Shown here: positions 1 through 43,621 of the stretch, piece after piece | How positions within the stretch are numbered: the stretch's first letter is position 1 | Layout: each line of letters begins with the position of its first letter | Assembly: GCA_032718475.1 (NCBI GenBank) | Contig: JAUCBJ010008795.1 | Location: 62,001-126,000 of the forward strand | Direction of reading: 5' to 3' | DNA length: 64,000 nucleotides | Origin: Nemertoderma westbladi | Taxonomy: Eukaryota > Animalia > Xenacoelomorpha | Program-made: the position numbers and the translations under genes | Notes under the pieces: model-generated | Databases searched by the model: none | What the model saw: only the letters and a program-made list of their open reading frames with translations | Told to the model about the DNA's origin: nothing

Positions 1-3000
1 CAGGTTAGGTGTTATTGTCCAGTGAGTACATCAGGAGGAACAAGTTAGGTGTTATTGTCCAGTGAGTACATCAGGAGGAACAGGTTGGGTGTTACTGTCC
101 TGTGAGTACATCAGTAGGAACAGGTTAGGTGTTATTGTCCAGTGAGTACATCATGAGGAACAGGTTAGGTGTTACTGTCCTGTGAGTACATCAGGAGGAA
201 CAGGTTAGGTGTTATTGTCCAGTGAGTACATCAGGAGGAACAGGTTAGGTGTTACTGTCCTTTGAGTACATCAGGAGGAACAGGTTAGGTTTTATTGTAC
301 ACTGTACAGTGAGTACATCAGGAGGAACAGGTTAGGTGTTATTGTCCTGTGAGTACATCAGTAGGAACAGGTTAGGTGTTACTGTCCTGTGAGTACATCA
401 GTAGGAACAGGTTAGGTGTTATTGTGCAGTGAGTTCATCATGAGGAACAGGTTATGTGTTATTGTCCTGTGAGTACATCAGTAGGAACAGGTTAGGTGTT
501 ATTGTCCTGTGAGTACATCAGTAGGAACAGGTTAGGTGTTATTGTCCAGGGAGTACATCAGTAGGAACAGGTTAGGTGTTACTGTCCAGTAAGTACATCA
601 GTAGGAACAGGTTAGGTTTTATTGTACACTGTACAGTGAGTACATCAGGAGGAACAGGTTAGGTGTTATTGTCCTGTGAGTACATCAGTAGGTACAGGTT
701 AGGTGTTACTGTCCTGTGAGTACATCAGTAGGAACAGGTTAGGTGTTATTGTGCAGTGAGTTCATCATGAGGAACAGGTTATGTGTTATTGTCCTGTGAG
801 TACATCAGTAGGAACAGGTTAGGTGTTATTGTGCAGTGAGTACATCAGGAGGATCAGGTTAGGTGTTATTGTCCAGTGAGTACATCAGGAGGAACAGGTT
901 AGGTGTTATTGTCCAGTGAGTACATAAGTAGGAACAGGTTAGGTGTTATTGTCCTGTGAGTACATCAGGAGGATCAGGTTAGGTGTTATTGTCCAGTGAG
1001 AACATCATGAGGAACAGGTTAGGCGTTACTGTCCTGTGAGTACATCAGGAGGAACAGGTTAGGTGTTATTGTCCAGTGAGTACATCAGGAGGAACAGGTT
1101 AGGTGTTATTGTCCAGTGAGTACATCAGGAGGAACAGGTTGGGTGTTACTGTCCTGTGAGTACATCAGTAGGAACAGGTTAGGTGTTATTGTCCTGTGAG
1201 TACATCAGGAGGATCAGGTTAGGTGTTATTGTCCAGTGAGTACATCATGAGGAACAGGTTAGGTGTTACTGTTCTGTGAGTACATCAGGAGGAACAGGTT
1301 AGGTGTTATTGTCCAGTGAGTACATCAGGAGGAACAGGTTAGGTGTTACTGTCCTTTGAGTACATCAGGAGGAACAGGTTAGGTTTTATTGTACACTGTA
1401 CAGTGAGTACATCAGGAGGAACAGGTTAGGTGTTATTGTCCTGTGAGTACATCAGTAGGAACAGGTTAGGTGTTACTGTCCTGTGAGTACATCAGTAGGA
1501 ACAGGTTAGGTGTTATTGTGCAGTGAGTTCATCATGAGGAACAGGTTATGTGTTATTGTCCTGTGAGTACATTAGTAGGAACAGGTTAGGTGTTATTGTC
1601 CTGTGAGTACCTCAGTAGGAACAGGTTAGGTGTTATTGTCCAGGGAGTACATCAGTAGGAACAGGTTAGGTGTTACTGTCCAGTAAGTACATCAGTAGGA
1701 ACAGGTTAGGTTTTATTGTACACTGTACAGTGAGTACATCAGGAGGAACAGGTTAGGTGTTATTGTCCTGTGAGTACATCAGTAGGTACAGGTTAGGTGT
1801 TACTGTCCTGTGAGTACATCAGTAGGAACAGGTTAGGTGTTATTGTGCAGTGAGTTCATCATGAGGAACAGGTTATGTGTTATTGTCCTGTGAGTACATC
1901 AGTAGGAACAGGTTAGGTGTTATTGTCCTGTGAGTACATCAGTAGGAACAGGTTAGGTGTTATTGTCCAGGGAGTACATCAGGAGGAACAGGTTAGGTGT
2001 TATGGTCCAGTGAGTACATAATGAGGAACAGGTTAGGTGTTATTGTCCAGGGAGTACATCATGAGGAACAGATTAGGTGTTATTGTCCAGTGAGTACATC
2101 ATGAGGAACAGGTTAGGTGTTATTGTCCAGGGAGTACATCATGAGGAACAGGTTAGGTGTTATTGTCCAGTGAGTACATCATGAGGATCAGGTTAGGTGA
2201 AACTGTCCTGTGAGTACAACAGTAGGAACAGGTTAGGTGTTATTGTCCTGTGAGTACATCAGGAGGATCAGGTTAGGTGTTATTGTCCTGTGAGTACATC
2301 AGTAGGAACAGGTTAGGTGTTACTGTCCTGTGAGTACATCAGTAGGAACAGGTTAGGTGTTATTGTGCAGTGAGTTCATCATGAGGAACAGGTTATGTGT
2401 TATTGTCCTGTGAGTACATCAGTAGGAACAGGTTAGGTGTTATTGTCCTGTGAGTACCTCAGTAGGAACTGGTTAGGTGTTATTGTCCAGGGAGTACATC
2501 AGTAGGAACAGGTTAGGTGTTACTGTCCAGTAAGTACATCAGTAGGAACAGGTTAGGTTTTATTGTACACTGTACAGTGAGTACATCAGGAGGAACAGGT
2601 TAGGTGTTATTGTCCTGTGAGTACATCAGTAGGTACAGGTTAGGTGTTACTGTCCTGTGAGTACATCAGTAGGAACAGGTTAGGTGTTATTGTGCAGTGA
2701 GTTCATCATGAGGAACAGGTTATGTGTTATTGTCCTGTGAGTACATCAGTAGGAACAGGTTAGGTGTTATTGTCCTGTGAGTACATCAGTAGGAATAGGT
2801 TAGGTGTTATTGTCCAGGGAGTACATCAGGAGGAACAGGTTAGGTGTTATGGTCCAGTGAGTACATAATGAGGAACAGGTTAGGTGTTATTGTCCAGGGA
2901 GTACATCATGAGGAACAGGTTAGGTGTTATTGTCCAGTGAGTACATCATGAGGAACAGGTTAGGTGTTATTGTCCAGGGAGTACATCATGAGGAACAGGT

Positions 3001-6000
3001 TAGGTGTTATTGTCCAGTGAGTACATCATGAGGATCAGGTTAGGTGAAACTGTCCTGTGAGTACAACAGTAGGAACAGGTTAGGTGTTATTGTCCTGTGA
3101 GTACATCAGGAGGATCAGGTTAGGTGTTATTGTCCAGTGAGTACATCATGAGGAACAGGTTAGGTGTTACTGTCCTGTGAGTACATCAGGAGGAACAGGT
3201 TAGGTGTTATTGTCCAGTGAGTACATCAGGAGGAACAGGTTAGGTGTTACTGTCCTTTGAGTACATCAGGAGGAACAGGTTAGGTTTTATTGTACACTGT
3301 ACAGTGAGTACATCAGGAGGAACAGGTTAGGTGTTATTGTCCTGTGAGTACATCAGTAGGAACAGGTTAGGTGTTACTGTCCTGTGAGTACATCAGTAGG
3401 AACAGGTTAGGTGTTATTGTGCAGTGAGTTCATCATGAGGAACAGGTTATGTGTTATTGTCCTGTGAGTACATCAGTAGGAACAGGTTAGGTGTTATTGT
3501 CCTGTGAGTACATCAGTAGGAACAGGTTAGGTGTTATTGTGCAGTGAGTACATCAGTGGGAACAGGTTAGGTGTTATTGTGCAGTGAGTTCATCATGAGG
3601 AACAGGTTATGTGTTATTGTCCTGTGAGTACATCAGTAGGAACAGGTTAGGTGTTATTGTCCTGTGAGTACATCAGTAGGAACAGGTTAGGTGTTATTGT
3701 CCAGTGAGTACATCAGTGGGAACAGGTTAGGTGTTATTGTCCAGGGAGTACATCAGTAGGAACAGGTTATGTGTTATTGTCCTGTGAGTACATCAGTAGG
3801 AACAGGTTAGGTGTTATTGTCCTGTGAGTACATCAGTAGGAACAGGTTAGGTGTTATTGTCCAGGGAGTACATCATGAGGAACAGGTTAGGTGTTATTGT
3901 CCAGGGAGTACATCAGGAGGAACAGGTTAGGTGTTATTGTCCTGTGAGTACATCAGTAGGAACAGGTTATGTGTTATTGTCCTGTGAGTACATCAGTAGG
4001 AACAGGTTAGGTGTTATTGTCCTGTGAGTACATCAGTAGGAACAGGTTAGGTGTTATTGTCCAGGGAGTACATCAGTAGGAACAGGTTAGGTGTTATTGT
4101 CCTGTGAGTACATCAGTAGGAACAGGTTAGGTGTTATTGTCCAGGGAGTACATCATGAGGAACAGGTTAGGTGTTATTGTCCAGGGAGTACATCAGTAGG
4201 AACAGGTTAGGTGTTATTGTCCAGTGAGTACATCATGAGGAACATGTTAAGTGTTATTGTCCTGTGAGTACATCAGTAGGAACAGGTTAGGTTTTATTGT
4301 ACACTGTACAGTGAGTACATCAGTAGGAACAGGTTAGGTGTTACTGTCCTGTGAGTACATCAGTAGGAACAGGTTAGGTGTTATTGTCCAGGGAGTACAT
4401 CAGTAGGAACAGGTTAGGTGTTATTGTCCAGTGAGTACATCATGAGGAACATGTTAAGTGTTATTGTCCTGTGAGTACATCAGTAGGAACAGGTTAGGTT
4501 TTATTGTACACTGTACAGTGAGTACATCAGTAGGAACAGGTTAGGTGTTATTGTCCAGTGAGTACATCATGAGGAACATGTTAAGTGTTATTGTCCTGTG
4601 AGTACATCAGTAGGAACAGGTTAGGTTTTATTGTACACTGTACAGTGAGTACATCAGGAGGAACAGGTTAGGAGTTATTGTCCTGTGAGTACATCAGTAG
4701 GTACAGGTTAGGTGTTACTGTCCTGTGAGTACATCAGTAGGAACAGGTTAGGTGTTATTGTGCAGTGAGTTCATCATGAGGAACAGGTTATGTGTTATTG
4801 TCCTGTGAGTACATCAGTAGGAACAGGTTAGGTGTTATTGTCCTGTGAGTACATCAGTAGGAACAGGTTAGGTGTTATTGTCCAGGGAGTACATCAGTAG
4901 GAACAGGTTAGGTGTTACTGTCCAGTGAGTACATCAGGAGGAACAGGTTAGGTGTTATTGTCCAGGGAGTACATCAGTAGGAACAGGTTAGGTGTTATTG
5001 TGCAGTGAGTTCATCATGAGGAACAGGTTAAGTGTTATTGTCCTGTGAGTACATCAGTAGGAACAGGTTAGGTGTTATTGTCCAGGGAGTACATCAGGAG
5101 GAACAGGTTAGGTGTTATGGTCCAGTGAGTACATAATGAGGAACAGGTTAGGTGTTATTGTCCAGTGAGTACATCATGAGGAACAGGTTAGGTGTTATTG
5201 TCCAGGGAGTACACCAGGAGGAACAGGTTAGGTGTTATTGTCCAGTGAGTACATCAGGAGGAACAGGTTAGGTGTTATTGTCCAGGGAGTACATCAGGAG
5301 GAACAGGTTAGGTATTATTGTCCTGTGAGTACATCAGTAGGAACAGGTTAGGTGTTATTGTCCTGTGAGTACATCAGTAGGAACAGGTTAGGTGTTATTG
5401 TCCTGTGAGTACATCAGTAGGAACAGGTTAGGTGTTATTGTCCTGTGAGTACATCAGTAGGAACAGGTTAGGTGTTATTGTCCAGTGAGTACATCATGAG
5501 GAACAGGTTAGGTGTTATTGTCCAGGGAGTACATAATGAGGAACAGGTTAGGTGTTATTGTCCAGTGAGTACATCAGGAGGAACAGGTTAGGTGTTATTG
5601 TCCTGTGAGTACATCAGTAGGAACAGGTTAGGTGTTATTGTCCAGTGAGTACATCATGAGGAACAGGTTAGGTGTTATTGTCCAGGGAGTACATAATGAG
5701 GAACAGGTTAGGTGTTATTGTCCAGTGAGTACATCATGAGGAACAGGTTAGGTGTTATTGTCCTGTGAGTACATCAGTAGGAACAGGTTAGGTGTTATTG
5801 TCCAGTGAGTACATCATGAGGAACAGGTTAGGTGTTATTGTCCAGGGAGTACATAATGAGGAACAGGTTAGGTGTTATTGTCCAGTGAGTACATCAGGAG
5901 GAACAGGTTAGGTGTTATTGTCCAGGGAGTACATCAGGAGGAACAGGTTAGGTGTTATGGTCCAGTGAGTACATCAGGAGGAACAGGTTAGGTGTTATTG

Positions 6001-9000
6001 TCCAGGGAGTACATCATGAGGAACAGGTTAGGTGTTATTGTCCAGTGAGTACATAAGGAGGAACAGGTTAGGTGTTATTGTCCAGGGAGTACATCAGGAG
6101 GAACAGGTTAGGTGTTATGGTCCAGTGAGTACATCAGGAGGAACAGGTTAGGTGTTATTGTCCAGGGAGTACATCATGAGGAACAGGTTAGGTGTTATTG
6201 TCCAGGGAGTACATCATGAGGAACAGGTTAGGTGTTATTGTCCTGTGAGTACATCAGTAGGAACAGGTTAGGTGTTATTGTCCAGGGAGTACATCATGAG
6301 GAACAGGTTAGGTGTTATTGTCCAGGGAGTACATCATGAGGAACAGGTTAGGTGTTATTGTCCAGTGAGTACATCATGAGGATCAGGTTAGGTGTTATTG
6401 TCCAGTGAGTACATCAGGAGGAACAGGTTAGGTGTTATTGTCCAGGGAGTACATCATGAGGAACAGGTTAGGTGTTATTGTCCAGTGAGTACATCATGAG
6501 GAACAGGTTAGGTGTTATTGTCCAGTGAGTACATCAGGAGGAACAGGTTAGGTGTTATTGTCCAGGGAGTACATCATGAGGAACAGGTTAGGTGTTATTG
6601 TCCAGGGAGTACATCAGGAGGAACAGGTTAGGTGTTATTGTCCTGGGAGTACATCAGTAGGAACAGGTTAGGTGTTATTGTCCAGGGAGTACATCAGGAG
6701 GAACAGGTTAGGTGTTATTGTCCAGGGAGTACATCAGGAGGAACAGGTTAGGTGTTATTGTCCAGGGAGTACATCATGAGGAACAGGTTAGGTGTTATTG
6801 TCCAGGGAGTACATCAGGAGGAACAGGTTAGGTGTTATTGTCCAGGGAGTACATCAGGAGGAACAGGTTAGGTGTTATTGTCCTGTGAGTACATCAGTAG
6901 GAACAGGTTAGGTGTTATTGTCCAGGGAGTACATCAGTAGGAACAGGTTAGGTGTTATTGTCCAGGGAGTACATCAGGAGGAACAGGTTAGGTGTTATTG
7001 TCCAGGGAGTACATCAGGAGGAACAGGTTAGGTGTTATTGTCCAGGGAGTACATCATGAGGAACAGGTTAGGTGTTATTGTCCAGGGAGTACATCATGAG
7101 GAACAGGTTAGGTGTTATTGTCCTGTGAGTACATCATGAGGATCAGGTTAGGTGTTATTGTCCAGTGAGTACATCATGAGGATCAGGTTAGGTGTTATTG
7201 TCCAGTGAGTACATCAGGAGGAACAGGTTAGGTGTTATTGCCCAGGGAGTACATCATGAGGAACAGGTTAGGTGTTATTGTCCAGGGAGTACATCATGAG
7301 GATCAGGTTAGGTGTTATTGTCCAGTGAGTACATCAGGAGGAACAGGTTAGGTGTTATTGTCCTGTGAGTACATCATGAGGAACAGGTTAGGTGTTATTG
7401 TCCAGGGAGTACATCAGGAGGAACAGGTTAGGTGTTATTGTCCAGTGAGTACATCATGAGGATCAGGTTAGGTGTTATTGTCCAGGGAGTACATCATGAG
7501 GAACAGGTTAGGTGTTATTGTCCAGGGAGTACATCATGAGGAACAGGTTAGGTGTTATTGTCCAGGGAGTACATCAGTGAGGAACAGGTTAGGTGTTATT
7601 GTCCTGTGAGTACATCAGTAGGAACAGGTTAGGTGTTATTGTCCAGGGAGTACATCATGAGGAACAGGTTAGGTGTTATTGTCCTGTGAGTACATCATGA
7701 GGAACAGGTTAGGTGTTATTGTCCAGGGAGTACATCATGAGGAACAGGTTAGGTGTTATTGTCCAGGGAGTACATCATGAGGAACAGGTTAGGTGTTATT
7801 GTCCTGTGAGTACATCATGAGGAACAGGTTAGGTGTTATTGTCCAGGGAGTACATCATGAGGAACAGGTTAGGTGTTATTGTCCTGTGAGTACATCATGA
7901 GGAACAGGTTAGGTGTTATTGTCCAGGGAGTACATCATGAGGAACAGGTTAGGTGTTATTGTCCAGGGAGTACATCAGGAGGAACAGGTTAGGTGTTATT
8001 GTCCAGTGAGTACATCATGAGGAACAGGTTAGGTGTTATTGTCCAGGGAGTACATCAGTAGGAACAGGTTAGGTGTTATTGTCCAGGGAGTACATCAGTA
8101 GGAACAGGTTAGGTGTTATTGTCCAGGGAGTACATCATGAGGAACAGGTTAGGTGTTATTGTCCAGGGAGTACATCATGAGGAACAGGTTAGGTGTTATT
8201 GTCCAGGGAGTACATCAGTAGGAACAGGTTAGGTGTTATTGTCCAGGGAGTACATCAGTAGGAACAGGTTAGGTGTTATTGTCCAGGGAGTACATCAGTA
8301 GGAACAGGTTAGGTGTTATTGTCCAGGGAGTACATCATGAGGAACAGGTTAGGTGTTATTGTCCAGGGAGTACATCAGTAGGAACAGGTTAGGTGTTATT
8401 GTCCAGGGAGTACATCAGTAGGAACAGGTTAGGTGTTATTGTCCAGGGAGTACATCAGTAGGAACAGGTTAGGTGTTATTGTACAGGGAGTACATCAGTA
8501 GGAACAGGTTAGGTGTTATTGTACAGGGAGTACATCAGTAGGAACAGGTTAGGTGTTATTGTACAGGGAGTACATCAGTAGGTAAAGGTTAGGTGTTATT
8601 GTCCTGTGAGTACATCAGTAGGTAAAGGTTAGGTGTTATTGTCCAGGGAGTACATCATGAGGAACAGGTTAGGTGTTATTGTCCAGGGAGTACATCAGTA
8701 GGAACAGGTTAGGTGTTATTGTACAGGGAGTACATCAGTAGGTAAAGGTTAGGTGTTATTGTCCTGTGAGTACATCAGTAGGAACAGGTTAGGTGTTATT
8801 GTCCAGTGAGTACATCATGAGGAACATGTTAGGTGTTATTGTCCAGGGAGTACATCAGTAGGAACAGGTTAGGTGTTATTGTACAGGGAGTACATCATGA
8901 GGAACAGGTTAGGTGTTATTGTCCAGGGAGTACATCATGAGGAACAGGTTAGGTGTTATTGTCCAGGGAGTACATCAGTAGGAACAGGTTAGGTGTTATT

Positions 9001-12000
9001 GTACAGGGAGTACATCAGTAGGAACAGGTTAGGTGTTATTGTCCAGTGAGTACATCATGAGGAACATGTTAGGTGTTATTGTCCAGGGAGTACATCAGTA
9101 GGAACAGGTTAGGTGTTATTGTCCAGGGAGTACATCAGTAGGAACAGGTTAGGTGTTATTGTCCAGTGAGTACATCAGTAGGAACAGGTTAGGTGTTATT
9201 GTACAGGGAGTACATCATGAGGAACAGGTTAGGTGTTATTGTCCAGGGAGTACATCATGAGGAACAGGTTAGGTGTTATTGTCCAGGGAGTACATCAGTA
9301 GGAACAGGTTAGGTGTTATTGTACAGGGAGTACATCAGTAGGTAAAGGTTAGGTGTTATTGTCCTGTGAGTACATCAGTAGGAACAGGTTAGGTGTTATT
9401 GTCCAGTGAGTACATCATGAGGAACATGTTAGGTGTTATTGTCCAGGGAGTACATCAGTAGGAACAGGTTAGGTGTTATTGTCCAGGGAGTACATCATGA
9501 GGAACAGGTTAGGTGTTATTGTCCAGTGAGTACATCATGAGGATCAGGTTAGGTGTTATTGTCCAGTGAGTACATCAGTAGGTAAAGGTTAGGTGTTATT
9601 GTCCAGGGAGTACATCATGAGGAACAGGTTAGGTGTTATTGTCCAGGGAGTACATCATGAGGATCAGGTTAGGTGTTATTGTCCAGTGAGTACATCATGA
9701 GGATCAGGTTAGGTGTTATTGTCCAGTGAGTACATCAGTAGGTAAAGGTTAGGTGTTATTGTCCAGGGAGTACATCATGAGGAACAGGTTAGGTGTTATT
9801 GTCCAGGGAGTACATCAGTAGGTAACAGGTTAGGTGTTATTGTCCAGGGAGTACATCAGTAGGAACAGGTTAGGTGTTATTGTCCAGGGAGTACATCAGT
9901 AGGAACAGGTTAGGTGTTATTGTCCAGGGAGTACATCAGTAGGAACAGGTTAGGTGTTATTGTCCAGGGAGTACATCAGGAGGAACAGGTTAGGTGTTAT
10001 TGTCCAGGGAGTACATCAGTAGGAACAGATTAGGTGTTATTGTCCTGTGAGTACATCAGTAGGAACAGGTTATGTGTTATTGTCCTGTGAGTACATCAGT
10101 AGGAACAGGTTAGGTGTTATTGTCCAGGGAGTACATCAGTAGGAACAGGTTAGGTGTTATTGTCCAGGGAGTACATCAGTAGGAACAGGTTAGGTGTTAT
10201 TGTCCAGGGAGTACATCAGTAGGAACAGGTTAGGTGTTATTGTCCAGGGAGTACATCAGTAGGAACAGGTTAGGTGTTATTGTCCAGGGAGTACATCAGT
10301 AGGAACAGGTTAGGTGTTATTGTCCTGTGAGTACATCAGTAGGAACAGGTTAGGTGTTATTGTCCTGTGAGTACATCAGTAGGAACAGGTTAGGTGTTAT
10401 TGTCCAGGGAGTACATCAGTAGGAACAGGTTAGGTGTTATTGTCCAGGGAGTACATCAGTAGGAACAGGTTAGGTGTTATTGTCCTGTGAGTACATCAGT
10501 AGGAACAGGTTAGGTGTTATTGTCCAGTGAGTACATCAGTAGGAACAGGTTAGGTGTTATTGTCCAGGGAGTACATCAGTAGGAACAGGTTAGGTGTTAT
10601 TGTCCAGGGAGTACATCAGTAGGAACAGGTTAGGTGTTATTGTCCAGGGAGTACATCAGTAGGAAAGGTTAGGTGTTATTGTCCAGGGAGTACATCAGTA
10701 GGAACAGATTAGGTGTTATTGTCCTGTGAGTACATCAGTAGGAACAGGTTAGGTGTTATTGTCCAGGGAGTACATCAGTAGGAACAGGTTAGGTGTTATT
10801 GTCCTGTGAGTACATCAGTAGGAACAGGTTAGGTGTTATTGTCCAGTGAGTACATCAGTAGGTAAAGGTTAGGTGTTATTGTCCAGGGAGTACATCAGTA
10901 GGAACAGATTAGGTGTTATTGTCCTGTGAGTACATCAGTAGGAACAGGTTAGGTGTTATTGTCCTGTGAGTACATCAGTAGGAACAGGTTAGGTGTTATT
11001 GTCCAGTGAGTACATCAGTAGGTAAAGGTTAGGTGTTATTGTCCAGGGAGTACATCAGTAGGAACAGATTAGGTGTTATTGTCCTGTGAGTACATCAGTA
11101 GGAACAGGTTAGGTGTTATTGTCCAGGGAGTACATCAGTAGGAACAGGTTAGGTGTTATTGTCCTGTGAGTACATCAGTAGGAACAGGTTAGGTGTTATT
11201 GTCCAGGGAGTACATCAGTAGGAACAGGTTAGGTGTTATTGTCCAGGGAGTACATCAGTAGGAACAGGTTAGGTGTTATTGTCCAGGGAGTACATCAGTA
11301 GGAACAGGTTAGGTGTTATTGTCCAGGGAGTACATCAGTAGGAACAGGTTAGGTGTTATTGTCCAGGGAGTACATCAGTAGGAACAGATTAGGTGTTATT
11401 GTCCTGTGAGTACATCAGTAGGAACAGGTTATGTGTTATTGTCCTGTGAGTACATCAGTAGGAACAGGTTAGGTGTTATTGTCCAGGGAGTACATCAGTA
11501 GGAACAGGTTAGGTGTTATTGTCCAGGGAGTACATCAGTAGGAACAGGTTAGGTGTTATTGTCCAGGGAGTACATCAGTAGGAACAGGTTAGGTGTTATT
11601 GTCCAGGGAGTACATCAGTAGGAACAGGTTAGGTGTTATTGTCCAGGGAGTACATCAGTAGGAACAGGTTAGGTGTTATTGTCCTGTGAGTACATCAGTA
11701 GGAACAGGTTAGGTGTTATTGTCCTGTGAGTACATCAGTAGGAACAGGTTAGGTGTTATTGTCCAGGGAGTACATCAGTAGGAACAGGTTAGGTGTTATT
11801 GTCCAGGGAGTACATCAGTAGGAACAGGTTAGGTGTTATTGTCCAGGGAGTACATCAGTAGGAACAGGTTAGGTGTTATTGTCCAGGGAGTACATCAGTA
11901 GGAACAGGTTAGGTGTTATTGTCCAGGGAGTACATCAGTAGGAACAGGTTAGGTGTTATTGTCCTGTGAGTACATCAGTAGGAACAGGTTAGGTGTTATT

Positions 12001-15000: not shown

Positions 15001-18000
15001 TTACTGTCCTGTGAGTACATCAGGAGGAACAGGTTAGGTGTTATTGTCCTGTGAGTACATCAGGAGGAACAGGTTAGGTGTTATTGTCCTGTGAGTACAT
15101 CAGTAGGAACAGGTTAGGTGTTATTGTCCAGGGAGTACATCATGAGGAACAGGTTAGGTGTTATTGTCCAGGGAGTACATCAGGAGGAACAGGTTAGGTG
15201 TTATTGTCCAGGGAGTACATCAGGAGGAACAGGTTAGGTGTTATTGTCCAGGGAGTACATCAGGAGGAACAGGTTAGGTGTTATTGTCCAGGGAGTACAT
15301 CATGAGGAACAGGTTAGGTGTTATTGTCCAGGGAGTACATCAGGAGGAACAGGTTAGGTGTTATTGTCCTGTGAGTACATCAGTAGGAACAGGTTAGGTG
15401 TTATTGTCCAGGGAGTACATCAGGAGGAACAGGTTAGGTGTTATTGTCCAGGGAGTACATCAGGAGGAACAGGTTAGGTGTTATTGTCCAGGGAGTACAT
15501 CATGAGGAACAGGTTAGGTGTTATTGTCCAGGGAGTACATCAGGAGGAACAGGTTAGGTGTTATTGTCCAGGGAGTACATCAGTAGGAACAGGTTAGGTG
15601 TTATTGTCCAGTGAGTACATCAGGAGGAACAGGTTAGGTGTTATTGTCCTGTGAGTACATCAGGAGGAACAGGTTAGGTGTTATTGTCCAGGGAGTACAT
15701 CAGTAGGAACAGGTTAGGTGTTATTGTCCTAGTGAGTACATCAGTAGGAACAGGTTAGGTGTTATTGTCCAGGGAGTACATCAGGAGGAACAGGTTAGGT
15801 GTTATTGTCCAGGGAGTACATCAGTAGGAACAGGTTAGGTGTTATTGTCCTGTGAGTACATCAGTAGGAACAGGTTAGGTGTTATTGTCCAGGGAGTACA
15901 TCAGTAGGAACAGGTTAGGTGTTATTGTCCTGTGAGTACATCAGGAGGAACAGGTTAGGTGTTATTGTCCAGGGAGTACATCAGTAGGAACAGGTTAGGT
16001 GTTATTGTCCAGTGAGTACATCAGTAGGAACAGGTTAGGTGTTATTGTCCAGGGAGTACATCAGGAGGAACAGGTTAGGTGTTATTGTCCAGGGAGTACA
16101 TCAGGAGGAACAGGTTAGGTGTTATTGTCCAGTGAGTACATCAGTAGGAACAGGTTAGGTGTTATTGTCCAGGGAGTACATCAGTAGGAACAGGTTAGGT
16201 GTTATTGTCCAGGGAGTACATCAGTAGGAACAGGTTAGGTGTTATTGTCCAGTGAGTACATCAGTGAGGAACAGGTTAGGTGTTATTGTCCAGTGAGTAC
16301 ATCAGTAGGAACAGGTTAGGTGTTATTGTCCAGGGAGTACATCAGTAGGAACAGGTTAGGTGTTATTGTCCAGGGAGTACATCATGAGGAACAGGTTAGG
16401 TGTTATTGTCCAGTGAGTACATCAGTGAGGAACAGGTTAGGTGTTATTGTCCAGGGAGTACATCAGTAGGAACAGGTTAGGTGTTATTGTCCAGGGAGTA
16501 CATCAGTAGGAACAGGTTAGGTGTTATTGTCCTGTGAGTACATCAGAGGAACAGGTTAGGTGTTATTGTCCAGTGAGTACATCAGAGGAACAGGTTAGGT
16601 GTTATTGTCCAGTGAGTACATCAGGAGGAACAGGTTAGGTGTTATTGTCCAGGGAGTACATCATGAGGAACAGGTTAGGTGTTATTGTCCAGGGAGTACA
16701 TCAGTAGGAACAGGTTAGGTGTTATTGTCCAGTGAGTACATCAGTAGGAACAGGTTAGGTGTTATTGTCCAGTGAGTACATCAGGAGGAACAGGTTAGGT
16801 GTTATTGTCCAGGGAGTACATCAGGAGGAACAGGTTAGGTGTTATTGTCCAGTGAGTACATCAGTAGGAACAGGTTAGGTGTTATTGTCCTGTGAGTACA
16901 TCAGTAGGAACAGGTTAGGTGTTATTGTCCAGGGAGTACATCATGAGGAACAGGTTAGGTGTTATTGTCCAGGGAGTACATCAGTAGGAACAGGTTAGGT
17001 GTTATTGTCCTGTGAGTACATCAGTAGGAACAGGTTAGGTGTTATTGTCCTGTGAGTACATCATGAGGAACAGGTTAGGTGTTATTGTCCTGTGAGTCAT
17101 CAGGAGGAACAGGTTAGGTGTTATTGTCCAGGGAGTACATCATGAGGAACAGGTTAGGTGTTATTGTCCTGTGAGTACATCATGAGGAACAGGTTAGGTG
17201 TTATTGTCCTGTGAGTACATCAGGAGGAACAGGTTAGGTGTTATTGTCCAGGGAGTACATCAGTAGGAACAGGTTAGGTGTTATTGTCCTGTGAGTACAT
17301 CATGAGGAACAGGTTAGGTGTTATTGTCCAGGGAGTACATCAGTAGGAACAGGTTAGGTGTTATTGTCCTAGTGAGTACATCAGTAGGAACAGGTTAGGT
17401 GTTATTGTCCTGTGAGTACATCAGGAGGAACAGGTTAGGTGTTATTGTCCAGGGAGTACATCAGGAGGAACAGGTTAGGTGTTATTGTCCAGGGAGTACA
17501 TCAGTAGGAACAGGTTAGGTGTTATTGTCCTGTGAGTACATCAGTAGGAACAGGTTAGGTGTTATTGTCCTGTGAGTACATCAGGAGGAACAGGTTAGGT
17601 GTTATTGTCCTGTGAGTACATCATGAGGAACAGGTTAGGTGTTATTGTCCAGTGAGTACATCAGTAGGAACAGGTTAGGTGTTATTGTCCTGTGAGTACA
17701 TCATGAGGAACAGGTTAGGTGTTATTGTCCAGGGAGTACATCAGGAGGAACAGGTTAGGTGTTATTGTCCTGTGAGTACATCATGAGGAACAGGTTAGGT
17801 GTTATTGTCCAGGGAGTACATCAGTAGGAACAGGTTAGGTGTTATTGTCCAGGGAGTACATCAGTGAGGAACAGGTTAGGTGTTATTGTCCAGGGAGTAC
17901 ATCAGTAGGAACAGGTTAGGTGTTATTGTCCTGTGAGTACATCAGTAGGAACAGGTTAGGTGTTATTGTCCTGTGAGTACATCAGTAGGAACAGGTTAGG

Positions 18001-21000
18001 TGTTATTGTCCAGGGAGTACATCAGTGAGGAACAGGTTAGGTGTTATTGTCCAGGGAGTACATCAGTAGGAACAGGTTAGGTGTTATTGTCCTGTGAGTA
18101 CATCAGTAGGAACAGGTTAGGTGTTATTGTCCTGTGAGTACATCATGAGGAACAGGTTAGGTGTTATTGTCCAGTGAGTACATCAGTGAGGAACAGGTTA
18201 GGTGTTATTGTCCTGTGAGTACATCAGTAGGAACAGGTTAGGTGTTATTGTCCAGGGAGTACATCATGAGGAACAGGTTAGGTGTTATTGTCCAGTGAGT
18301 ACATCAGTAGGAACAGGTTAGGTGTTATTGTCCTGTGAGTACATCAGGAGGAACAGGTTAGGTGTTATTGTCCAGGGAGTACATCATGAGGAACAGGTTA
18401 GGTGTTATTGTCCAGTGAGTACATCATGAGGAACAGGTTAGGTGTTATTGTCCAGTGAGTACATCAGTAGGAACAGGTTAGGTGTTATTGTCCAGGGAGT
18501 ACATCAGGAGGAACAGGTTAGGTGTTATTGTCCAGTGAGTACATCATGAGGAACAGGTTAGGTGTTATTGTCCAGTGAGTACATCAGGAGGAACAGGTTA
18601 GGTGTTATTGTCCTGTGAGTACATCATGAGGAACAGGTTAGGTGTTATTGTCCAGGGAGTACATCAGTAGGAACAGGTTAGGTGTTATTGTCCAGTGAGT
18701 ACATCAGTAGGAACAGGTTAGGTGTTATTGTCCAGTGAGTACATCATGAGGAACAGGTTAGGTGTTATTGTCCTGTGAGTACATCAGTAGGAACAGGTTA
18801 GGTGTTATTGTCCAGTGAGTACATCATGAGGAACAGGTTAGGTGTTATTGTCCAGGGAGTACATCAGTAGGAACAGGTTAGGTGTTATTGTCCAGTGAGT
18901 ACATCAGTGAGGAACAGGTTAGGTGTTATTGTCCAGTGAGTACATCAGTAGGAACAGGTTAGGTGTTATTGTCCAGTGAGTACATCAGTGAGGAACAGGT
19001 TAGGTGTTATTGTCCAGGGAGTACATCAGTGAGGAACAGGTTAGGTGTTATTGTCCAGGGAGTACATCAGAGGAACAGGTTAGGTGTTATTGTCCAGTGA
19101 GTACATCAGTAGGAACAGGTTAGGTGTTATTGTCCAGGGAGTACATCATGAGGAACAGGTTAGGTGTTATTGTCCAGTGAGTACATCAGTGAGGAACAGG
19201 TTAGGTGTTATTGTCCAGGGAGTACATCAGTGAGGAACAGGTTAGGTGTTATTGTCCAGGGAGTACATCAGTAGGAACAGGTTAGGTGTTATTGTCCAGT
19301 GAGTACATCAGTAGGAACAGGTTAGGTGTTATTGTCCAGGGAGTACATCATGAGGAACAGGTTAGGTGTTATTGTCCAGGGAGTACATCAGTAGGAACAG
19401 GTTAGGTGTTATTGTCCAGGGAGTACATCAGTAGGAACAGGTTAGGTGTTATTGTCCAGGGAGTACATCAGAGGAACAGGTTAGGTGTTATTGTCCAGTG
19501 AGTACATCATGAGGAACAGGTTAGGTGTTATTGTCCAGGGAGTACATCAGTAGGAACAGGTTAGGTGTTATTGTCCAGGGAGTACATCAGTGAGGAACAG
19601 GTTAGGTGTTATTGTCCAGTGAGTACATCAGTAGGAACAGGTTAGGTGTTATTGTCCAGGGAGTACATCATGAGGAACAGGTTAGGTGTTATTGTCCAGG
19701 GAGTACATCATGAGGAACAGGTTAGGTGTTATTGTCCAGTGAGTACATCAGTAGGAACAGGTTAGGTGTTATTGTCCAGGGAGTACATCAGAGGAACAGG
19801 TTAGGTGTTATTGTCCAGGGAGTACATCAGGAGGAACAGGTTAGGTGTTATTGTCCAGGGAGTACATCATGAGGAACAGGTTAGGTGTTATTGTCCAGGG
19901 AGTACATCAGTAGGAACAGGTTAGGTGTTATTGTCCAGGGAGTACATCAGTGAGGAACAGGTTAGGTGTTATTGTCCAGGGAGTACATCAGAGGAACAGG
20001 TTAGGTGTTATTGTCCAGGGAGTACATCAGGAGGAACAGGTTAGGTGTTATTGTCCAGGGAGTACATCAGTGAGGAACAGGTTAGGTGTTATTGTCCAGG
20101 GAGTACATCAGTGAGGAACAGGTTAGGTGTTATTGTCCAGGGAGTACATCAGGAGGAACAGGTTAGGTGTTATTGTCCAGGGAGTACATCAGTGAGGAAC
20201 AGGTTAGGTGTTATTGTCCAGGGAGTACATCAGTAGGAACAGGTTAGGTGTTATTGTCCAGGGAGTACATCAGGAGGAACAGGTTAGGTGTTATTGTCCA
20301 GGGAGTACATCATGAGGAACAGGTTAGGTGTTATTGTCCAGGGAGTACATCAGTAGGAACAGGTTAGGTGTTATTGTCCAGGGAGTACATCATGAGGAAC
20401 AGGTTAGGTGTTATTGTCCAGGGAGTACATCAGTGAGGAACAGGTTAGGTGTTATTGTCCAGGGAGTACATCATGAGGAACAGGTTAGGTGTTATTGTCC
20501 AGGGAGTACATCAGTAGGAACAGGTTAGGTGTTATTGTCCAGGGAGTACATCATGAGGAACAGGTTAGGTGTTATTGTCCAGTGAGTACATCAGTAGGAA
20601 CAGGTTAGGTGTTATTGTCCAGGGAGTACATCAGTGAGGAACAGGTTAGGTGTTATTGTCCAGGGAGTACATCAGGAGGAACAGGTTAGGTGTTATTGTC
20701 CAGTGAGTACATCATGAGGAACAGGTTAGGTGTTATTGTCCTGTGAGTACATCAGTAGGAACAGGTTAGGTGTTATTGTCCTGTGAGTACATCAGTAGGA
20801 ACAGGTTAGGTGTTATTGTCCAGTGAGTACATCAGGAGGAACAGGTTAGGTGTTATTGTCCAGGGAGTACATCAGTAGGAACAGGTTAGGTGTTATTGTC
20901 CAGTGAGTACATCAGGAGGAACAGGTTAGGTGTTATTGTCCAGGGAGTACATCATGAGGAACAGGTTAGGTGTTATTGTCCAGTGAGTACATCAGGAGGA

Positions 21001-24000
21001 ACAGGTTAGGTGTTATTGTCCAGGGAGTACATCAGTAGGAACAGGTTAGGTGTTATTGTCCAGGGAGTACATCATGAGGAACAGGTTAGGTGTTATTGTC
21101 CAGGGAGTACATCAGTAGGAACAGGTTAGGTGTTATTGTCCAGTGAGTACATCATGAGGAACAGGTTAGGTGTTACTGTCCTGTGAGTACATCAGTAGGA
21201 ACAGGTTATGTGTTATTGTCCAGGGAGTACATCAGTAGGAACAGGTTAGGTGTTATTGTCCTGTGAGTACATCAGTAGGAACAGGTTAGGTGTTATTGTC
21301 CTGTGAGTACATCAGTAGGTAAAGGTTAGGTGTTATTGTCCAGGGAGTACATCAGGAGGAACAGGTTAGGTGTTATTGTCCTGTGAGTACATCAGTAGGA
21401 ACAGGTTAGGTGTTATTGTCCTGTGAGTACATCAGGAGGAACAGGTTAGGTGTTATTGTCCAGGGAGTACATCAGTAGGAACAGGTTAGGTGTTATTGTC
21501 CAGTGAGTACATCAGTAGGAACAGGTTAGGTGTTATTGTCCAGGGAGTACATCAGTAGGAACAGGTTAGGTGTTACTGTCCTGTGAGTAAATCATGAGGA
21601 TCAGGTTAGGTTTTATTGTCCTGTGAGTAGGCCTACATCATGAGGAACAGATTAGGTGTTATTGTCCTGTGAGTACATCAGTAGGATCAGGTTATGTGTT
21701 ATTGTCCTGTGAAGGTTAGGTGTTATTGTGCAGTGAGTACATCATGAGGAACAGGTTAGGTGTTATTGTCCTGAGAGTACATCAGTAGGAACAGGTTAGG
21801 TGATATTGTCCAGGGAGTACATCAGTAGGAACAGGTTAGGTGTTATTGTCCTGTGAGTACATCAGGAGGAACAGGTTAGGTGTTATTGTCCTGTGAGTAC
21901 ATCAGTAGGAACAGGTTAGGTGTTATTGTCCTGTGAGTACATCAGTAGGAACAGGTTAGGTGTTATTGTCCAGGGAGTACATCAGTAGGAACAGGTTAGG
22001 TGTTATTGTCCTGTGAGTACATCAGGAGGAACAGGTTATGTGTTATTGTCCTGTGAGTACATCAGTAGGAACAGGTTAGGTGTTATTGTCCTGTGAGTAC
22101 ATCATGAGGAACAGGTTAGGTGTTATTGTCCTGTGAGTACATCAGTAGGAACAGGTTAGGTGTTATTGTCCAGGGAGTACATCAGTAGGAACAGGTTAGG
22201 TGTTATTGTCCTGTGAGTACATCAGTAGGAACAGGTTAGGTGTTATTGTCCGGAGTACATCAGTAGGAAAGGTTAGTGTTATTGTCCGGAGTACATCAGG
22301 AGGAACAGGTTAGGTGTTATTGTCCAGGGAGTACATCAGGAGGAACAGGTTAGGTGTTATTGTCCTGTGAGTACATCAGTAGGAACAGGTTAGGTGTTAT
22401 TGTCCTGTGAGTACATCATGAGGAACAGATTAGGTGTTATTGTCCTGTGAGTACATCAGTAGGATCAGGTTATGTGTTATTGTCCTGTGAGTACATCAGT
22501 AGGAACAGATTAGGTGTTATTGTCCAGTGAGTACATCAGTAGGTAAAGGTTAGGTGTTATTGTCCAGGGAGTACATCATGAGGAACAGATTAGGTGTTAC
22601 TGTCCTGTGAGTACATCAGTAGGAACAGATTAGGTGTTATTGTCCAGTGAGTACATCAGTAGGTAACAGGTTAGGTGTTATTGTCCAGGGAGTACATCAT
22701 GAGGAACAGATTAGGTGTTATTGTCCTGTGAGTACATCAGTAGGAACAGGTTAGGTGTTATTGTCCAGTGAGTACATCAGTAGGAACAGGTTAGGTGTTA
22801 TTGTCCAGGGAGTACATCATGAGGAACAGGTTAGGTGTTATTGTCCAGTGAGTACATCAGTAGGAACAGGTTATGTGTTATTGTCCAGGGAGTACATCAG
22901 TAGGAACAGGTTAGGTGTTATTGTCCTGTGAGTACATCAGTAGGAACAGGTTAGGTGTTATTGTCCTGTGAGTACATCAGTAGGTAAAGGTTAGGTGTTA
23001 TTGTCCAGGGAGTACATCAGGAGGAACAGGTTAGGTGTTATTGTCCTGTGAGTACATCAGTAGGAACAGGTTAGGTGTTATTGTCCTGTGAGTACATCAG
23101 TAGGATCAGGTTATGTGTTATTGTCCTGTGAGTACATCAGTAGGAACAGATTAGGTGTTATTGTCCAGTGAGTACATCAGTAGGAACAGGTTAGGTGTTA
23201 TTGTCCTGTGAGTACATCAGGAGGAACAGGTTAGGTGTTATTGTCCAGTGAGTACATCAGTAGGAACAGGTTAGGTGTTATTGTCCTGTGAGTACATCAG
23301 GAGGAACAGGTTAGGTGTTATTGTCCTGTGAGTACATCAGTAGGAACAGGTTAGGTGTTATTGTCCAGGGAGTACATCAGTAGGAACAGGTTAGGTGTTA
23401 TTGTCCTGTGAGTACATCAGTAGGAACAGGTTAGGTGTTATTGTCCAGGGAGTACATCAGTAGGAACAGGTTAGGTGTTATTGTCCTGTGAGTACATCAG
23501 TAGGATCAGGTTATGTGTTATTGTCCTGTGAGTACATCAGTAGGAACAGATTAGGTGTTATTGTCCAGTGAGTACATCAGTAGGAACAGGTTAGGTGTTA
23601 TTGTCCTGTGAGTACATCAGGAGGAACAGGTTAGGTGTTATTGTCCTGTGAGTACATCAGTAGGAACAGGTTAGGTGTTATTGTCCAGGGAGTACATCAT
23701 GAGGAACAGGTTAGGTGTTATTGTCCAGTGAGTACATCAGTAGGATCAGGTTATGTGTTATTGTCCTGTGAGTACATCAGTAGGAACAGGTTAGGTGTTA
23801 CTGTCCTGTGAGTAAATCATGAGGATCAGGTTAGGTTTTATTGTCCTGTGAGTAGGCCTACATCATGAGGAACAGATTAGGTGTTATTGTCCTGTGAGTA
23901 CATCAGTAGGATCAGGTTATGTGTTATTGTCCTGTGAGTACATCAGTAGGAACAGATTAGGTGTTATTGTCCAGTGAGTACATCAGTAGGAACAGATTAG

Positions 24001-27000
24001 GTGTTATTGTCCAGTGAGTACATCAGTAGGATCAGGTTATGTGTTATTGTCCTGTGAGTACATCAGTAGGAACAGGTTAGGTGTTACTGTCCTGTGAGTA
24101 AATCATGAGGATCAGGTTAGGTTTTATTGTCCTGTGAGTAGGCCTACATCATGAGGAACAGATTAGGTGTTATTGTCCTGTGAGTACATCAGTAGGATCA
24201 GGTTATGTGTTATTGTCCTGTGAGTACATCAGTAGGAACAGGTTAGGTGTTATTGTCCAGTGAGTACATCATGAGGAACAGGTTAGGTGTTATTGTGCAG
24301 TGAGTACATCATGAGGAACAGGTTAGGTGTTATTGTCCAGGGAGTACATCAGTAGGAACAGGTTAGGTGTTATTGTCCTGTGAGTACATCATGAGGAACA
24401 GGTTAGGTGTTATTGTACAGGGAGTACATCATGAGGAACAGGTTAGGTGTTATTGTCCAGTGAGTACATAATGAGGATCAGGTTAGGTTTTATTGTCCTG
24501 TGAGTAGGCCTACATCATGAGGAACAGATTAGGTGTTATTGTCCAGTGAGTACATCAGTAGGATCAGGTTATGTGTTATTGTCCTGTGAGTACATCAGTA
24601 GGAACAGGTTAGGTGTTACTGTCCTGTGAGTAAATCATGAGGATCAGGTTAGGTTTTATTGTCCTGTGAGTAGGCCTACATCATGAGGAACAGATTAGGT
24701 GTTATTGTCCAGTGAGTACATCAGTAGGATCAGGTTATGTGTTATTGTCCTGTGAGTACATCAGTAGGAACAGGTTAGGTGTTATTGTCCAGTGAGTACA
24801 TCAGTAGGAACAGATTAGGTGTTATTGTCCAGTGAGTACATCAGTAGGATCAGGTTATGTGTTATTGTCCTGTGAGTACATCAGTAGGAACAGGTTAGGT
24901 GTTACTGTCCAGTGAGTACATCAGTAGGAACAGGTTAGGTGTTATTGTCCAGGGAGTACATCAGGAGGAACAGGTTAGGTGTTATTGTCCAGTGAGTACA
25001 TCAGTAGGAACAGGTTAGGTGTTATTGTCCAGTGAGTACATCAGGAGGAACAGGTTAGGTGTTATTGTCCTGTGAGTACATCAGTAGGAACAGGTTAGGT
25101 GTTATTGTCCTGTGAGTACATCAGTAGGAACAGGTTAGGTGTTACTGTCCAGTGAGTACATCAGTAGGAACAGGTTAGGTGTTATTGTCCTGTGAGTACA
25201 TCAGTAGGAACAGGTTAGGTGTTATTGTCCAGTGAGTACATCAGTAGGAACAGATTAGGTGTTATTGTCCAGTGAGTACATCAGTAGGATCAGGTTATGT
25301 GTTATTGTCCTGTGAGTACATCAGTAGGAACAGGTTAGGTGTTACTGTCCTGTGAGTACATCAGTAGGAACAGGTTAGGTGTTATTGTCCAGGGAGTACA
25401 TCATGAGGAACAGGTTAGGTGTTATGGTCCTGTGAGTACATCATGAGGAACAGGTTAGGTGTTATTGTCCAGGGAGTACATCAGTAGGAACAGGTTAGGT
25501 GTTACTGTCCTGTGAGTACATCAGTAGGAACAGGTTAGGTGTTATTGTCCTGTGAGTACATCATGAGGAACAGGTTAGGTGTTATTGTCCAGGGAGTACA
25601 TCAGTAGGAACAGGTTAGGTGTTATTGTCCAGTGAGTACATCATGAGGAACATGTTAGGTGTTATGGTCGAGTGAGTACATCAGGAGGAAAAGGTTAGGT
25701 GTTATTGTCCTGTGAGTACATCATGAGGAACAGGTTAGGTGTTATTGTCCAGGGAGTACATTAGTAGGAACAGGTTAGGTGTTATTGTCCAGTGAGTACA
25801 TCAGTAGGAACAGGTTAGGTGTTACTGTCCTGTGAGTACATCAGGAGGAACAGGTTAGGTGTTATTGTCCAATGAGTACATCAGGAGGAACAGGTTAGGT
25901 GTTATTGTCCTGTGAGTACATCAGTGGGAACAGGTTAGGTGTTATTGTCCAATGAGTACATCAGGAGGAACAGGTTAGGTGTTACTGTCCTGTGAGTACA
26001 TCAGGAGGAACAGGTTAGGTGTTATTGTCCAATGAGTACATCAGGAGGAACAGGTTAGGTGTTATTGTCCTGTGAGTACATCAGTGGGAACAGGTTAGGT
26101 GTTATTGTCCAATGAGTACATCAGGAGGAACAGGTTAGGTGTTACTGTCCTGTGAGTACATCAGGAGGAACAGGTTAGGTGTTATTGTCCAATGAGTACA
26201 TCAGGAGGAACAGGTTAGGTGTTATTGTCCTGTGAGTACATCAGTGGGAACAGGTTAGGTGTTACTGTCCTGTGAGTACATCATGAGGAACAGGTTAGGT
26301 GTTATTGTTTCTGTGAGTACATCAGTGGGAACAGATTAGGTGTTACTGTCCTGTGAATACATCATGAGGAACAGGTTAGGTGTTACTGTCCTGTGAGTAC
26401 ATCAGGAGGAACAGGTTAGGTGTTATTGTCCTGTGAGTACATCAGTGGGAACAGGTTAGGTGTTACTGTCCTGTGAGTACATCATGAGGAACAGGTTAGG
26501 TGTTATTGTTTCTGTGAGTACATCAGTGGGAACAGGTTAGGTGTTACTGTCCTGTGAGTACATCAGGAGGAACAGGTTAGGTGTTATTGTCCTGTGAGTA
26601 CATCAGTGGGAACAGGTTAGGTGTTACTGTCCTGTAAGTACATCATGAGGAACAGGTTATGTGTTATTGTTTCTGTGAGTACATCAGTGGGAACAGGTTA
26701 GGTGTTACTGTCCTGTGAGTACATCATGAGGAACAGGTTAGGTGTTACTGTCCTGTGAGTACATCATGAGGAACAGGTTAGGTGTTATTGTCCAGGGAGT
26801 ACATCAGGAGGAACAGGTTAGGTGTTATTGTGCAGTGAGTACATCAGGAGGAACAGGTTAGGTGTTATTGTCCTGTGAGTACACCAGTGGGAACAGGTTA
26901 GGTGTTACTGTCCTGTGAGTACATCATGAGGAACAGGTTAGGTGTTACTGTCCTGTGAGTACATCATGAGGAACAGGTTAGGTGTTATTGTCCTGTGAGT

Positions 27001-28210
27001 ACATCAGGAGGAACAGGTTAGGTGTTATTGTCCAGTGAGTACATTAGTAGGAACAGGTTAGGTGTTATTGTCCTGTGAGTACATCAGGAGGAACAGGTTA
27101 GGTGTTATTGTCCAGGGAGTACATCAGGAGGAACAGGTTAGGTGTTATTGTCCAATGAGTACATCAGGAGGAACAGGTTAGGTGTTATTGTCCTGTGAGT
27201 ACATCAGTGGGAACAGGTTAGGTGTTACTGTCCTGTGAGTACATCATGAGGAACAGGTTAGGTGTTATTGTTTCTGTGAGTACATCAGTAGGAAAAAGGT
27301 TAGGTGTTATAGTACAGGGAGTACATCATGAGGAACAGGTTAGGTGTTACTGTCCTGTGAGTACATCATGAGGAACAGGTTAGGTGTTATTGTCCAGTGA
27401 GTACATCATGAGGAACAGGTTAGGTGTTATTGTCCTGTGAGTACATCAGTAGGAACAGGTTAGGTGTTAATGTGCAGTGAGTACATCATGAGGAACACGT
27501 TAGGTGTTATTGTCCTGTGAGTACATCAGGAGGAAAAGGTTAGGTGTTATTGTCCAGGGAGTACACCAGGAGGAACAGGTTAGGTGTTATTGTCCTGTGA
27601 GTACATCAGTAGGAATAGGTTAGGTGTTATTGTCTAGTGAGTACATCATGATGAACAGGTTAGGTGTTATTGTCCTATGAGTGCATCAGGAGGAACAGGT
27701 TAGGTGTTATTGTCCAGGGAGTACATAATGAGGAACAGGTTAGGTGTTGTTGTCCTATGAGTACATCAGGAGGAACAGGTTAGGTGTTATTGTCCAGTGA
27801 GTACATCATGAGGAACAGGTTAGGTGTTATTGTCCTGTGAGTACATCAGTAGGAAAAGGTTAGGTGTTATTGTCCAGGGAGTACATCATGAGGAACAGGT
27901 TAGGTGTAACTGTCCTGTGAGTACATCAGTAGGAACAGGTTAGGTGTTATTGTACAGGGAGTACATCAGGAGGAACAGGTTAGGTGTTATTGTCCTGGGA
28001 GTACATAAGGAGGAACAGGTTAGGTGTTATTGTCCAGGGAGTACATCATGAGGAACAGGTTAGGTGTTATTGTCCAGGGAGTACATCAGTAGGAACAGGT
28101 TAGGTGTTATTGTCCTGTGAGTACATCAGTAGGAAAAGGTTAGGTGTTATTGTCCAGTGAGTACATCATGATGAACAGTTTAGCTGTCATTGCCCAGTGA
28201 GTACATCATC
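1..28210 (+). repeat. 40-bp tandem satellite (~700 monomers, open at window start), filling an intron of DHX38/PRP16
   Basis: Consensus TTATTGTCC(AGT/AGG/TGT)GAGTACATCA(GTA/TGA/GGA)GGAACAGGTTAGGTG repeated continuously; last degenerate copy ends ~22 bp before the acceptor TTTCAG at 28227-28232. Confidence 0.98.
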
Positions 28211-28893
28211 AATCACATTTTATCTATTTCAGGTTGGCAAAGTTGCTGTGCGGAAGATTTCGGCACAGCGTCAGCAGTTGAATGCGGACAACGTTGCCTG
28301 GGAGACCAGTCGGATGATACGATCCGGGGTGGTCCATTTGGCGAGTGCGGACCCGGACGCTGTAACCGAGACCGAAGGAACCAAAGTACATCTCCTCGTC
28401 CACAACATCGTTCCGCCCTTCCTGGACGGCCGTCTAACCTTCACGAAGCAGCCGGAGCCAGTGGTTCCGATACGAGATCCATCGAGCGCCATGGTTCAGT
28501 TCGCCCGGGCTGGTTCGCTGCTGGTCCGACGGCATCGAGAGGCTCAGGAGAAACGGAAGTCCGCTAAGAAGGAGTGGGAGTTAGCAGGAACCAAGCTAGG
28601 GGATATAATGGGGGTTGAGAAACCCAAAGATGAGGAAGACATAGCGGTTGACGATAAGGGAGAAGTCGATTACAAGTCGAATCAGAAGTTCTCGAGTTTG
28701 TTGCCAAAGTCCTCGGAATCCAAGTGTTTCTGGAAGCAGCGCCAGTTCCTCCCGATATTCGCAGTCCGTTCCGAATTTATACGGATCGTTCGTGACCATC
28801 AGATAGTCGTCGTTGTTGGGGAGACTGGCAGTGGGAAGACCACGCAGCTGACGCAGTACCTGTACGAGGAAGGGTACGCGAGTAGAGGTTGCA

Positions 28894-29425
<532 letters not shown>

Positions 29426-29700
29426 CGAAGTGTGAAGTTGAGAAATTTCAAAATTTGACAAATCACCTTTTTAGATGTGCCGAAAAAAGTTCCAATATTA
29501 TGTCGAAATATAATCGTTGAAGTTACATGGTGCAAGCTGTATTCTTTAAAAATTGTAATTTTTGTCATTTTGAAAAATTATAATGTGCCGAAGGAATTTC
29601 ACTGCAACATGCAACTTTTACAACTTATTAAACCCATAAATTCTTGTACTTTATGTTGGGCTGTTCTGTTGTAATAATTTTCAAATCGCTTCTATCCCAG

Positions 29701-30882: not shown

Positions 30883-30915
30883 CGTTATTTATAAATTATT
30901 ATTATTTTCTAACAG

Positions 30916-43490: not shown

Positions 43491-43621
43491 TATATTATAT
43501 ATATATCACGCTACACTGAGTAGCAGTATCGGTAATTAATTACTAGGCTAACAGTGATACTGAATTACTAGACTTGCTTAAACTGTAATATAACAGTAGG
43601 CATTCAACTGTACAAACCAAC

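Follow-up and report, generated by a model that had tools for sequence, protein, structure and literature searches.

Donor-spanning minisatellites are an already described class of repeat, with members in F7, CBS, 6-16, LMNB2 and PDGF, in amphioxus, where they are called 'mirages', and in ABCA7. The 37-bp VNTR in IVS7 of F7 was described by Borensztajn et al. (2006; PMC1557585), who also cite the cases of CBS IVS13, 6-16, LMNB2 and PDGF, and the F7 minigenes in the available part of that paper, which carried up to 12 units, used only the most upstream of the identical donors. The 'mirage' minisatellites were found in the amphioxus Adh3 and globin genes (Ebner et al., 2010; PMC3087553). The VNTR in intron 18 of ABCA7 ranges from 298 to 10,678 bp, or about 12 to 427 units (De Roeck et al., 2018; PMC5954066), and the accessible text of that report describes use of the second donor and an increase in exon 19 skipping with array length. 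A window of 64,000 nucleotides of the Nemertoderma westbladi genome (contig JAUCBJ010008795.1, positions 62,001 to 126,000) was analysed here. What is new at this locus is the size of an array (at least 28 kb and at least 703 copies) and the fact that a single gene of the core spliceosome has a pair of them; searches of the open full-text literature listed no account of this PRP16 array and none of any larger donor array that derives from an exon. A sequence-only reading of the window had implied that amplification of an exon/donor junction was itself novel, which set the novelty too high.

The host gene was identified as the DEAH helicase gene PRP16/DHX38 from its best matches, which are to PRP16, from its Helicase_C, HA2 and OB domains and from its open frame. 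The part in the window, on the plus strand, comprises a 739-nt exon with a phase-0 start (28233..28971; E 1e-93 against human PRP16), intron 2 (28972..29700; 729 bp, GT-AG), a 374-nt exon (29701..30074), intron 3 (30075..30915; 841 bp, GT-AG), the splicing of which is predicted from homology only, and the last coding exon (30916..32409), which is 72-74% identical to animal PRP16. Together the three exons encode 868 amino acids with no internal stop, and only two introns interrupt these 868 codons. Protein searches returned no full-length PRP16 of the same species, the best identities among the 120 matches listed per search being 74% and 61%. In a tree of 31 rows, made of the window sequence and 30 of the 182 retrieved proteins (9 rows being without the N-terminal part), the window sequence formed a long, unplaced branch among the animal sequences.

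Upstream of the 739-nt exon, a tandem array of 40-bp units on the plus strand occupies window positions 1..28208, its left end being the window edge. TRF gave a period of 40, 702.8 copies and 92% matches for 1-28208, bearing out the previous estimate of about 700 copies and more than 28 kb in a PRP16 intron; as the array continues past the window start, the copy number of 703 and the length of 28 kb are lower bounds. Splitting the array gave 703 unit starts, and 646 of the 702 complete units were exactly 40 bp, the others being 24-47 bp. No unit was longer than 47 bp, so the array is without unique interruption. The mean identity of the units to the consensus was 94.9%, with high-frequency variation at four unit positions, the combinations of which shift patchwise along the array. 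Similarity between units peaked at a lag of four units (0.176), and the 118 distinct GTTAGG-to-GTTAGG segments are arranged as ordered patches. When up to 3 mismatches were allowed, a 20-nt motif from the unit junction had 697 matches in the window versus 0.01 expected from 100 shuffles, all of them at or before 28130 and none on the minus strand. Within the array, AG/GTTAG occurs 633 times and GTGAGT 395 times, in agreement with the statement of the sequence-only reading that many monomers carry GTGAGT. The possibility that the repeat is a coding array was rejected, as there are stops in all six frames and the longest open stretch is 66 codons.

The array closes with a partial unit (28179..28208) that differs at 4 of 30 positions and is the most decayed of all; TT replaces the GT of its donor, and the unit stops at the place of the 7-nt deletion joint described below. 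Between this unit and the acceptor at 28232 lie 24 bp (28209..28232), the sole unique intron 1 sequence in view, with a pyrimidine tract (11 of 14) and the acceptor CAG, and the array makes up 99.9% of the visible intron. Both this acceptor and an exon that starts in phase 0, as read earlier, are present in the sequence. Contigs of four sequencing runs (X1 to X4, four of the eight listed, labelled 'DNA?'; no RNA run was among those listed) were aligned to 28060-28980. In both X1 (28142-28928) and X2 (28149-28928), one DNA contig reaches from the array into the exon. Contig depth gave rough minimum array lengths of about 12 kb in X1, 23 kb in X2 and 1.4 kb in the low-coverage X3; these minimums would halve if contigs were counted twice, and depth is no true copy number. 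At 28800-28869, X2 to X4 also carry another sequence of DEAH-helicase type, probably from a paralogue, that differs at 13 of 70 bases.

The end of the preceding exon, which lies outside the window, was obtained from X4. Its contig 30 spans 28230-28975 with 3 differences in 746 exon bases and then continues with the exon at 29701, the start of which lies in a loose end of the contig. The loose end before 28230 reads TCCAGCGAGTACATCAGGAAGAAAGAGGAA, loose ends being limited to 30 letters. It translates as SSEYIRKKEE and is followed by CAG (Q), so that the protein junction runs from SSEYIRKKEEQ to VGKVAV. The motif is conserved in animal orthologues (for example LSSEYAKKKEE in one retrieved protein), and of the 13 residues between EY and KR.SAQ in the printed orthologues the window exon gives six and the X4 contig the other seven. 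Comparison of this exon end with the most exon-like units showed 16 of 17 and 9 of 9 identical bases in two colinear blocks, with seven bases missing between them in the unit. The 26-mer of the most exon-like type is present in 25 copies, and the majority consensus has one further difference; two colinear blocks this similar would arise by chance with a probability of about 1e-10 (analytic, before allowing for the choice of variant). Counted from GT, unit positions 15-31 and 32-40 match the exon end, so that 26 of the 40 nucleotides are exon-derived, and positions 1-12 would correspond to the 5′ end of intron 1, positions 13-14 being assigned to neither. These data show that the unit is homologous to the end of the upstream PRP16 exon and that this exon is the source of the repeat. 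The direction from exon to repeat is supported because the orthologues keep the motif and because the unit lacks the seven nucleotides needed for the frame, and a transfer from repeat to exon is ruled out by the conservation of the motif. The earlier proposal that the preceding exon gave rise to the repeat, with a small internal deletion in the monomer, is thereby upheld, the deletion being of 7 nt. The exon end had been predicted as SEYIRR..EEQ; the real residues are YIRKKEEQ, the second R of the prediction being a product of the deletion joint. The loose end of the contig stops short of the L codon that precedes SSEY in the monomer. The 47-bp variant units were considered as the undeleted ancestor and rejected, as their 7-nt insertion differs from the seven nucleotides of the exon.

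Contig 30 is spliced at both introns and runs unbroken over both junctions without a single repeat unit. X4 was taken to be an RNA run because this contig is spliced, because the 83-bp repeat of intron 2 (see below) shows no extra depth in X4, and because the ratio of array depth to exon depth is low (3.4, versus 878 to 13,029 in X1 to X3). In the mRNA that this contig represents, the exon end without the 7-nt deletion is followed directly by position 28233. This is one contig of one sample, whose RNA nature is deduced from the features just named; contigs also drop rare isoforms. The genomic junction between the exon and the 5′ end of the array was not captured among the monomer-aligned contigs (91 in X1, 1237 in X2, 40 in X3 and 6 in X4), where no more than about 30 bases of repeat would be expected on a DNA contig running from exon into array. 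Of long unique flanks, these contigs showed the PRP16 acceptor alone (in X1 and X2; none in X3 and X4). A second flank, as would be expected of unlinked 40-mer loci, was not found in the X1 to X4 contigs, which is weak evidence for a single locus, as the search is insensitive and also missed the 5′ junction. From the structure of the unit, we infer that the donor is GTTAGG and that the array would start at it. A pattern scan of metagenomes gave a single match (L001), which is unrepeated, lies in unrelated sequence and was set aside as a chance match.

Taken together, it is very likely that the 40-bp repeat is a copy of the last bases of the PRP16 exon before it plus, probably, the intron start with its donor, that it grew, probably by unequal exchange, that it has no function, and that it is spliced out from the first donor. 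In the proposed sequence of events, a duplication of about 47 bp across the exon-intron boundary would have been shortened by 7 nt through a microhomology of two nucleotides (GA), and the 40-bp deletion derivative would then have been amplified. Unequal exchange or slippage would have expanded and homogenised the array, leaving the patchy variants and the decayed terminal unit. The genomic order would be the exon ending in SSEYIRKKEEQ, then GTTAGGTGTTA, then the first units, perhaps including an undeleted 47-bp copy. If the most upstream donor wins, as in the F7 experiments, rare use of a decoy would lead to a premature stop, and the expansion would be tolerated.

The junction of the unit agrees with the consensus of splice donors at 7 of 9 positions, equal to the two real donors in the window, implying that sequence alone does not silence the decoys. 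In a simulation, which assumes that the first units of the intron resemble those in view, splicing from a decoy located one, two or three units into the array gave a premature stop in 689, 694 and 699 of 700 cases, respectively. On the sense strand of the array, neither AATAAA nor ATTAAA was found, which would ease transcriptional read-through. Recursive splicing at AG/GT is unlikely, as pyrimidines make up 4 of the 14 positions before the unit junction versus 10-11 of 14 at the three real acceptors. Each exon-like unit also holds a 21-nt stretch (1077-1097 in one unit) that runs from a weak acceptor-like AG to a donor-like site and begins with TGA; it is possible, as a speculation, that this is a poison micro-exon.

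The second array lies in intron 2, which opens with units of 83 bp that consist of the last 78 nt of the exon 28233..28971 plus GTGAG and extend from 28972 to about 29422. There are four full copies, 71-74 of whose 78 bases are identical to the exon, one deleted copy and one terminal partial copy; about 280 bp of unique sequence then closes the intron. Here, the array starts directly at the authentic donor (28972) in genomic DNA, and the repeat joint from 28976 back to 28894 is present in X1 and X3 contigs. Contig 30 of X4 exits the exon at the first donor of intron 2 and skips the intron. The 83-bp array is independent of the 40-bp array and has the same anatomy, and two of the three PRP16 introns in view contain donor-derived repeats. 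The stretch GTTAGGTG is common to the 40-bp and 83-bp units.

Compared with the described members of the class, the 40-bp array consists of head-to-tail intronic units within the 10-160 bp range of the class and ends 24 bp before a used acceptor. As in F7, a donor-like site is reiterated within the intron and the most upstream donor is used, although the F7-type cases in the available part of PMC1557585 have 5 to about 25 copies versus at least 703 in PRP16. The first F7 unit spans the exon-intron boundary, whereas overlap of the 40-bp array with the authentic donor is deduced; the F7 units are the real junction with four exon bases, whereas the PRP16 unit is a 7-nt deletion derivative with 26 exon bases. 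The amphioxus mirages resemble the PRP16 arrays in that a boundary of exon and intron is tandemly repeated together with its splice signals, in that there are several of them per lineage, in their concerted evolution with divergent edge units, and in the retention of normal splicing. They differ in size, a globin locus having only a few copies, and the accessible text of PMC3087553 describes no satellite-sized case. The ABCA7 VNTR, as described in the parts of PMC5954066, PMC13747324 and PMC7999247 that were available, likewise begins at a splice donor, carries a donor in each unit and reaches kilobase scale, and retention of one unit leads to a frame shift and a premature stop. Its 25-bp unit, however, starts at GT and has no exon sequence according to these sources, in contrast to the PRP16 unit. 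The PRP16 array is at least 2.6 times as long as the longest ABCA7 allele reported in the available part of PMC5954066; splicing effects were measured for ABCA7, whereas the PRP16 array is known from sequence and contigs. The Y-loop introns of the Drosophila genes kl-3 and kl-5 are also almost wholly tandem repeat (PMC6508621 and PMC11207136, in the parts available), but these are megabase arrays of simple satellites in testis genes and are not described there as exon-derived, whereas the PRP16 array measures tens of kilobases in a core splicing gene. Intron 1 is at least 28.2 kb long, its 5′ end being outside the window, compared with hundreds of kilobases to megabases for Y-loop gigantism.

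Three other readings of the locus were weighed. It is unlikely that the array is the founding sequence of the intron, that is, that a Rogers-type duplication at an exonic AG/GT made the intron itself, a scenario that shares the exon origin of the repeat with the preferred explanation. Such gain would resemble the present case in that an intron is reshaped by duplication at AG/GT or across a boundary. CAGGTT would flank intron 1 at both ends if the deduced 5′ end is right, AGGTGA is present at both ends of intron 2, and the three intron positions (355, 607 and 731 in the numbering of the retrieved protein P0076) coincide with none of the isoform breakpoints at 373, 463, 609, 718 and 755, an indirect comparison based on retrieved, mostly vertebrate isoforms. 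However, a unit produced in this way should include the start of the downstream exon, and past GTT there is no match to 28233 onward, the sequence shared with the downstream exon being only GTT for intron 1 and GTGA for intron 2. Moreover, the closing sequence of either intron is unique, rich in pyrimidines and unlike the ends of the exons. That the array is real while its length is an assembly error, or that it belongs to a dispersed satellite with its main mass elsewhere, is very improbable. Short-read contigs are unable to span the array, and a summed monomer depth of 878 to 13,029 times that of the exon in X1 to X3 would fit more than 703 copies as well as other loci. Against this, 118 distinct segments in ordered patches are not what an assembly that had collapsed or looped would look like, contigs of two samples bridge the 3′ junction, the depth sets rough lower bounds of about 12 kb (X1) and 23 kb (X2), though only 1.4 kb in the low-coverage X3, and the insensitive search for a second flank found none.

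A regulatory role for an array of the same origin is quite unlikely. Under such a role, the decoy donors or the long transcription time would set the dose of PRP16, and decoy use would possibly feed nonsense-mediated decay, possibly as a feedback on spliceosome activity. It would accord with unit junctions as good as the real donors (7 of 9), with the premature stops that nearly always follow simulated decoy use, with the presence of donor arrays in two successive introns of a splicing helicase gene, and with the ABCA7 VNTR, the length of which tracks lower expression and more exon skipping in the available part of PMC5954066. However, joints between a decoy and the acceptor are absent from the X4 contigs, donor positions are kept no better than most other positions of the unit, and several other arrays in the window have no exon match, repeats being common in the region. 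The array is most likely neutral repeat DNA that is tolerated through selection of the first donor, as the preferred explanation holds; by analogy, the splicing changes that accompany array length in ABCA7 speak against pure neutrality of the PRP16 array.

Neither a new kind of element nor a function for the array is indicated. An array of satellite size can seldom be traced to the sequence it came from, as is done here, and a possibly very short intron, with 24 unique base pairs in view, has been enlarged past 28 kb from its own junction. The locus also puts the choice of a 5′ splice site to an extreme test in nature, with more than 600 donor-like sites downstream of the real one, well beyond the 12 units at most of the F7 minigenes and the longest ABCA7 allele (about 427 units) in the parts of these sources available. 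A far broader idea, that a process in this lineage seeds donor satellites and enlarges tiny introns genome-wide, and that the hundreds to thousands of PRP16 decoys act as a length-tunable control of helicase dose, is a conjecture that we would not expect to hold.

Tandem repeats are abundant in the region, and several other arrays in the window are without an exon match. The minisatellite of intron 3 (30406-30880), which has a 41-bp unit, matches none of the exons. An array of about 65 copies of a 46-bp unit (32863-35869), without a PRP16 exon match, lies 450 bp past the PRP16 stop; it begins just after a T-rich tract plus AG and could lie within an untranslated part of either neighbouring gene. 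Two further minisatellites have units of 29 bp (36560-37005; no match to exons) and 18 bp (39182-39398). The hexamer TTAGGT, which we take to resemble telomere-type repeats, is present in three of five tested array units (arrays 1-28208, 28972-29422 and 32863-35869) versus 19 occurrences in 31,413 other bases, a pattern noticed post hoc.

An intronless gene on the minus strand (37083-38591) encodes a SAMHD1-like HD-domain protein of 503 amino acids, about 42% identical to animal SAMHD1 and 36-48% identical to proteins of many animals. No SAM domain was found in this protein, and a short coding repeat lies at 37827-37894. A BEL/Pao-type retrotransposon with Peptidase_A17 and integrase zinc-binding domains spans 40025-62973; to our knowledge, the BEL/Pao group is specific to animals. 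Inside this span, an open frame of 596 codons on the plus strand (59906-61696) has Cys/His-rich motifs and no Pfam match. The pol region of the element is split over frames, a 3.9-kb segment is duplicated (41572-45473 and 48256-52158; 99.5% identity), and there are three LTR-like copies of 1.2-1.3 kb with 97-99% identity.
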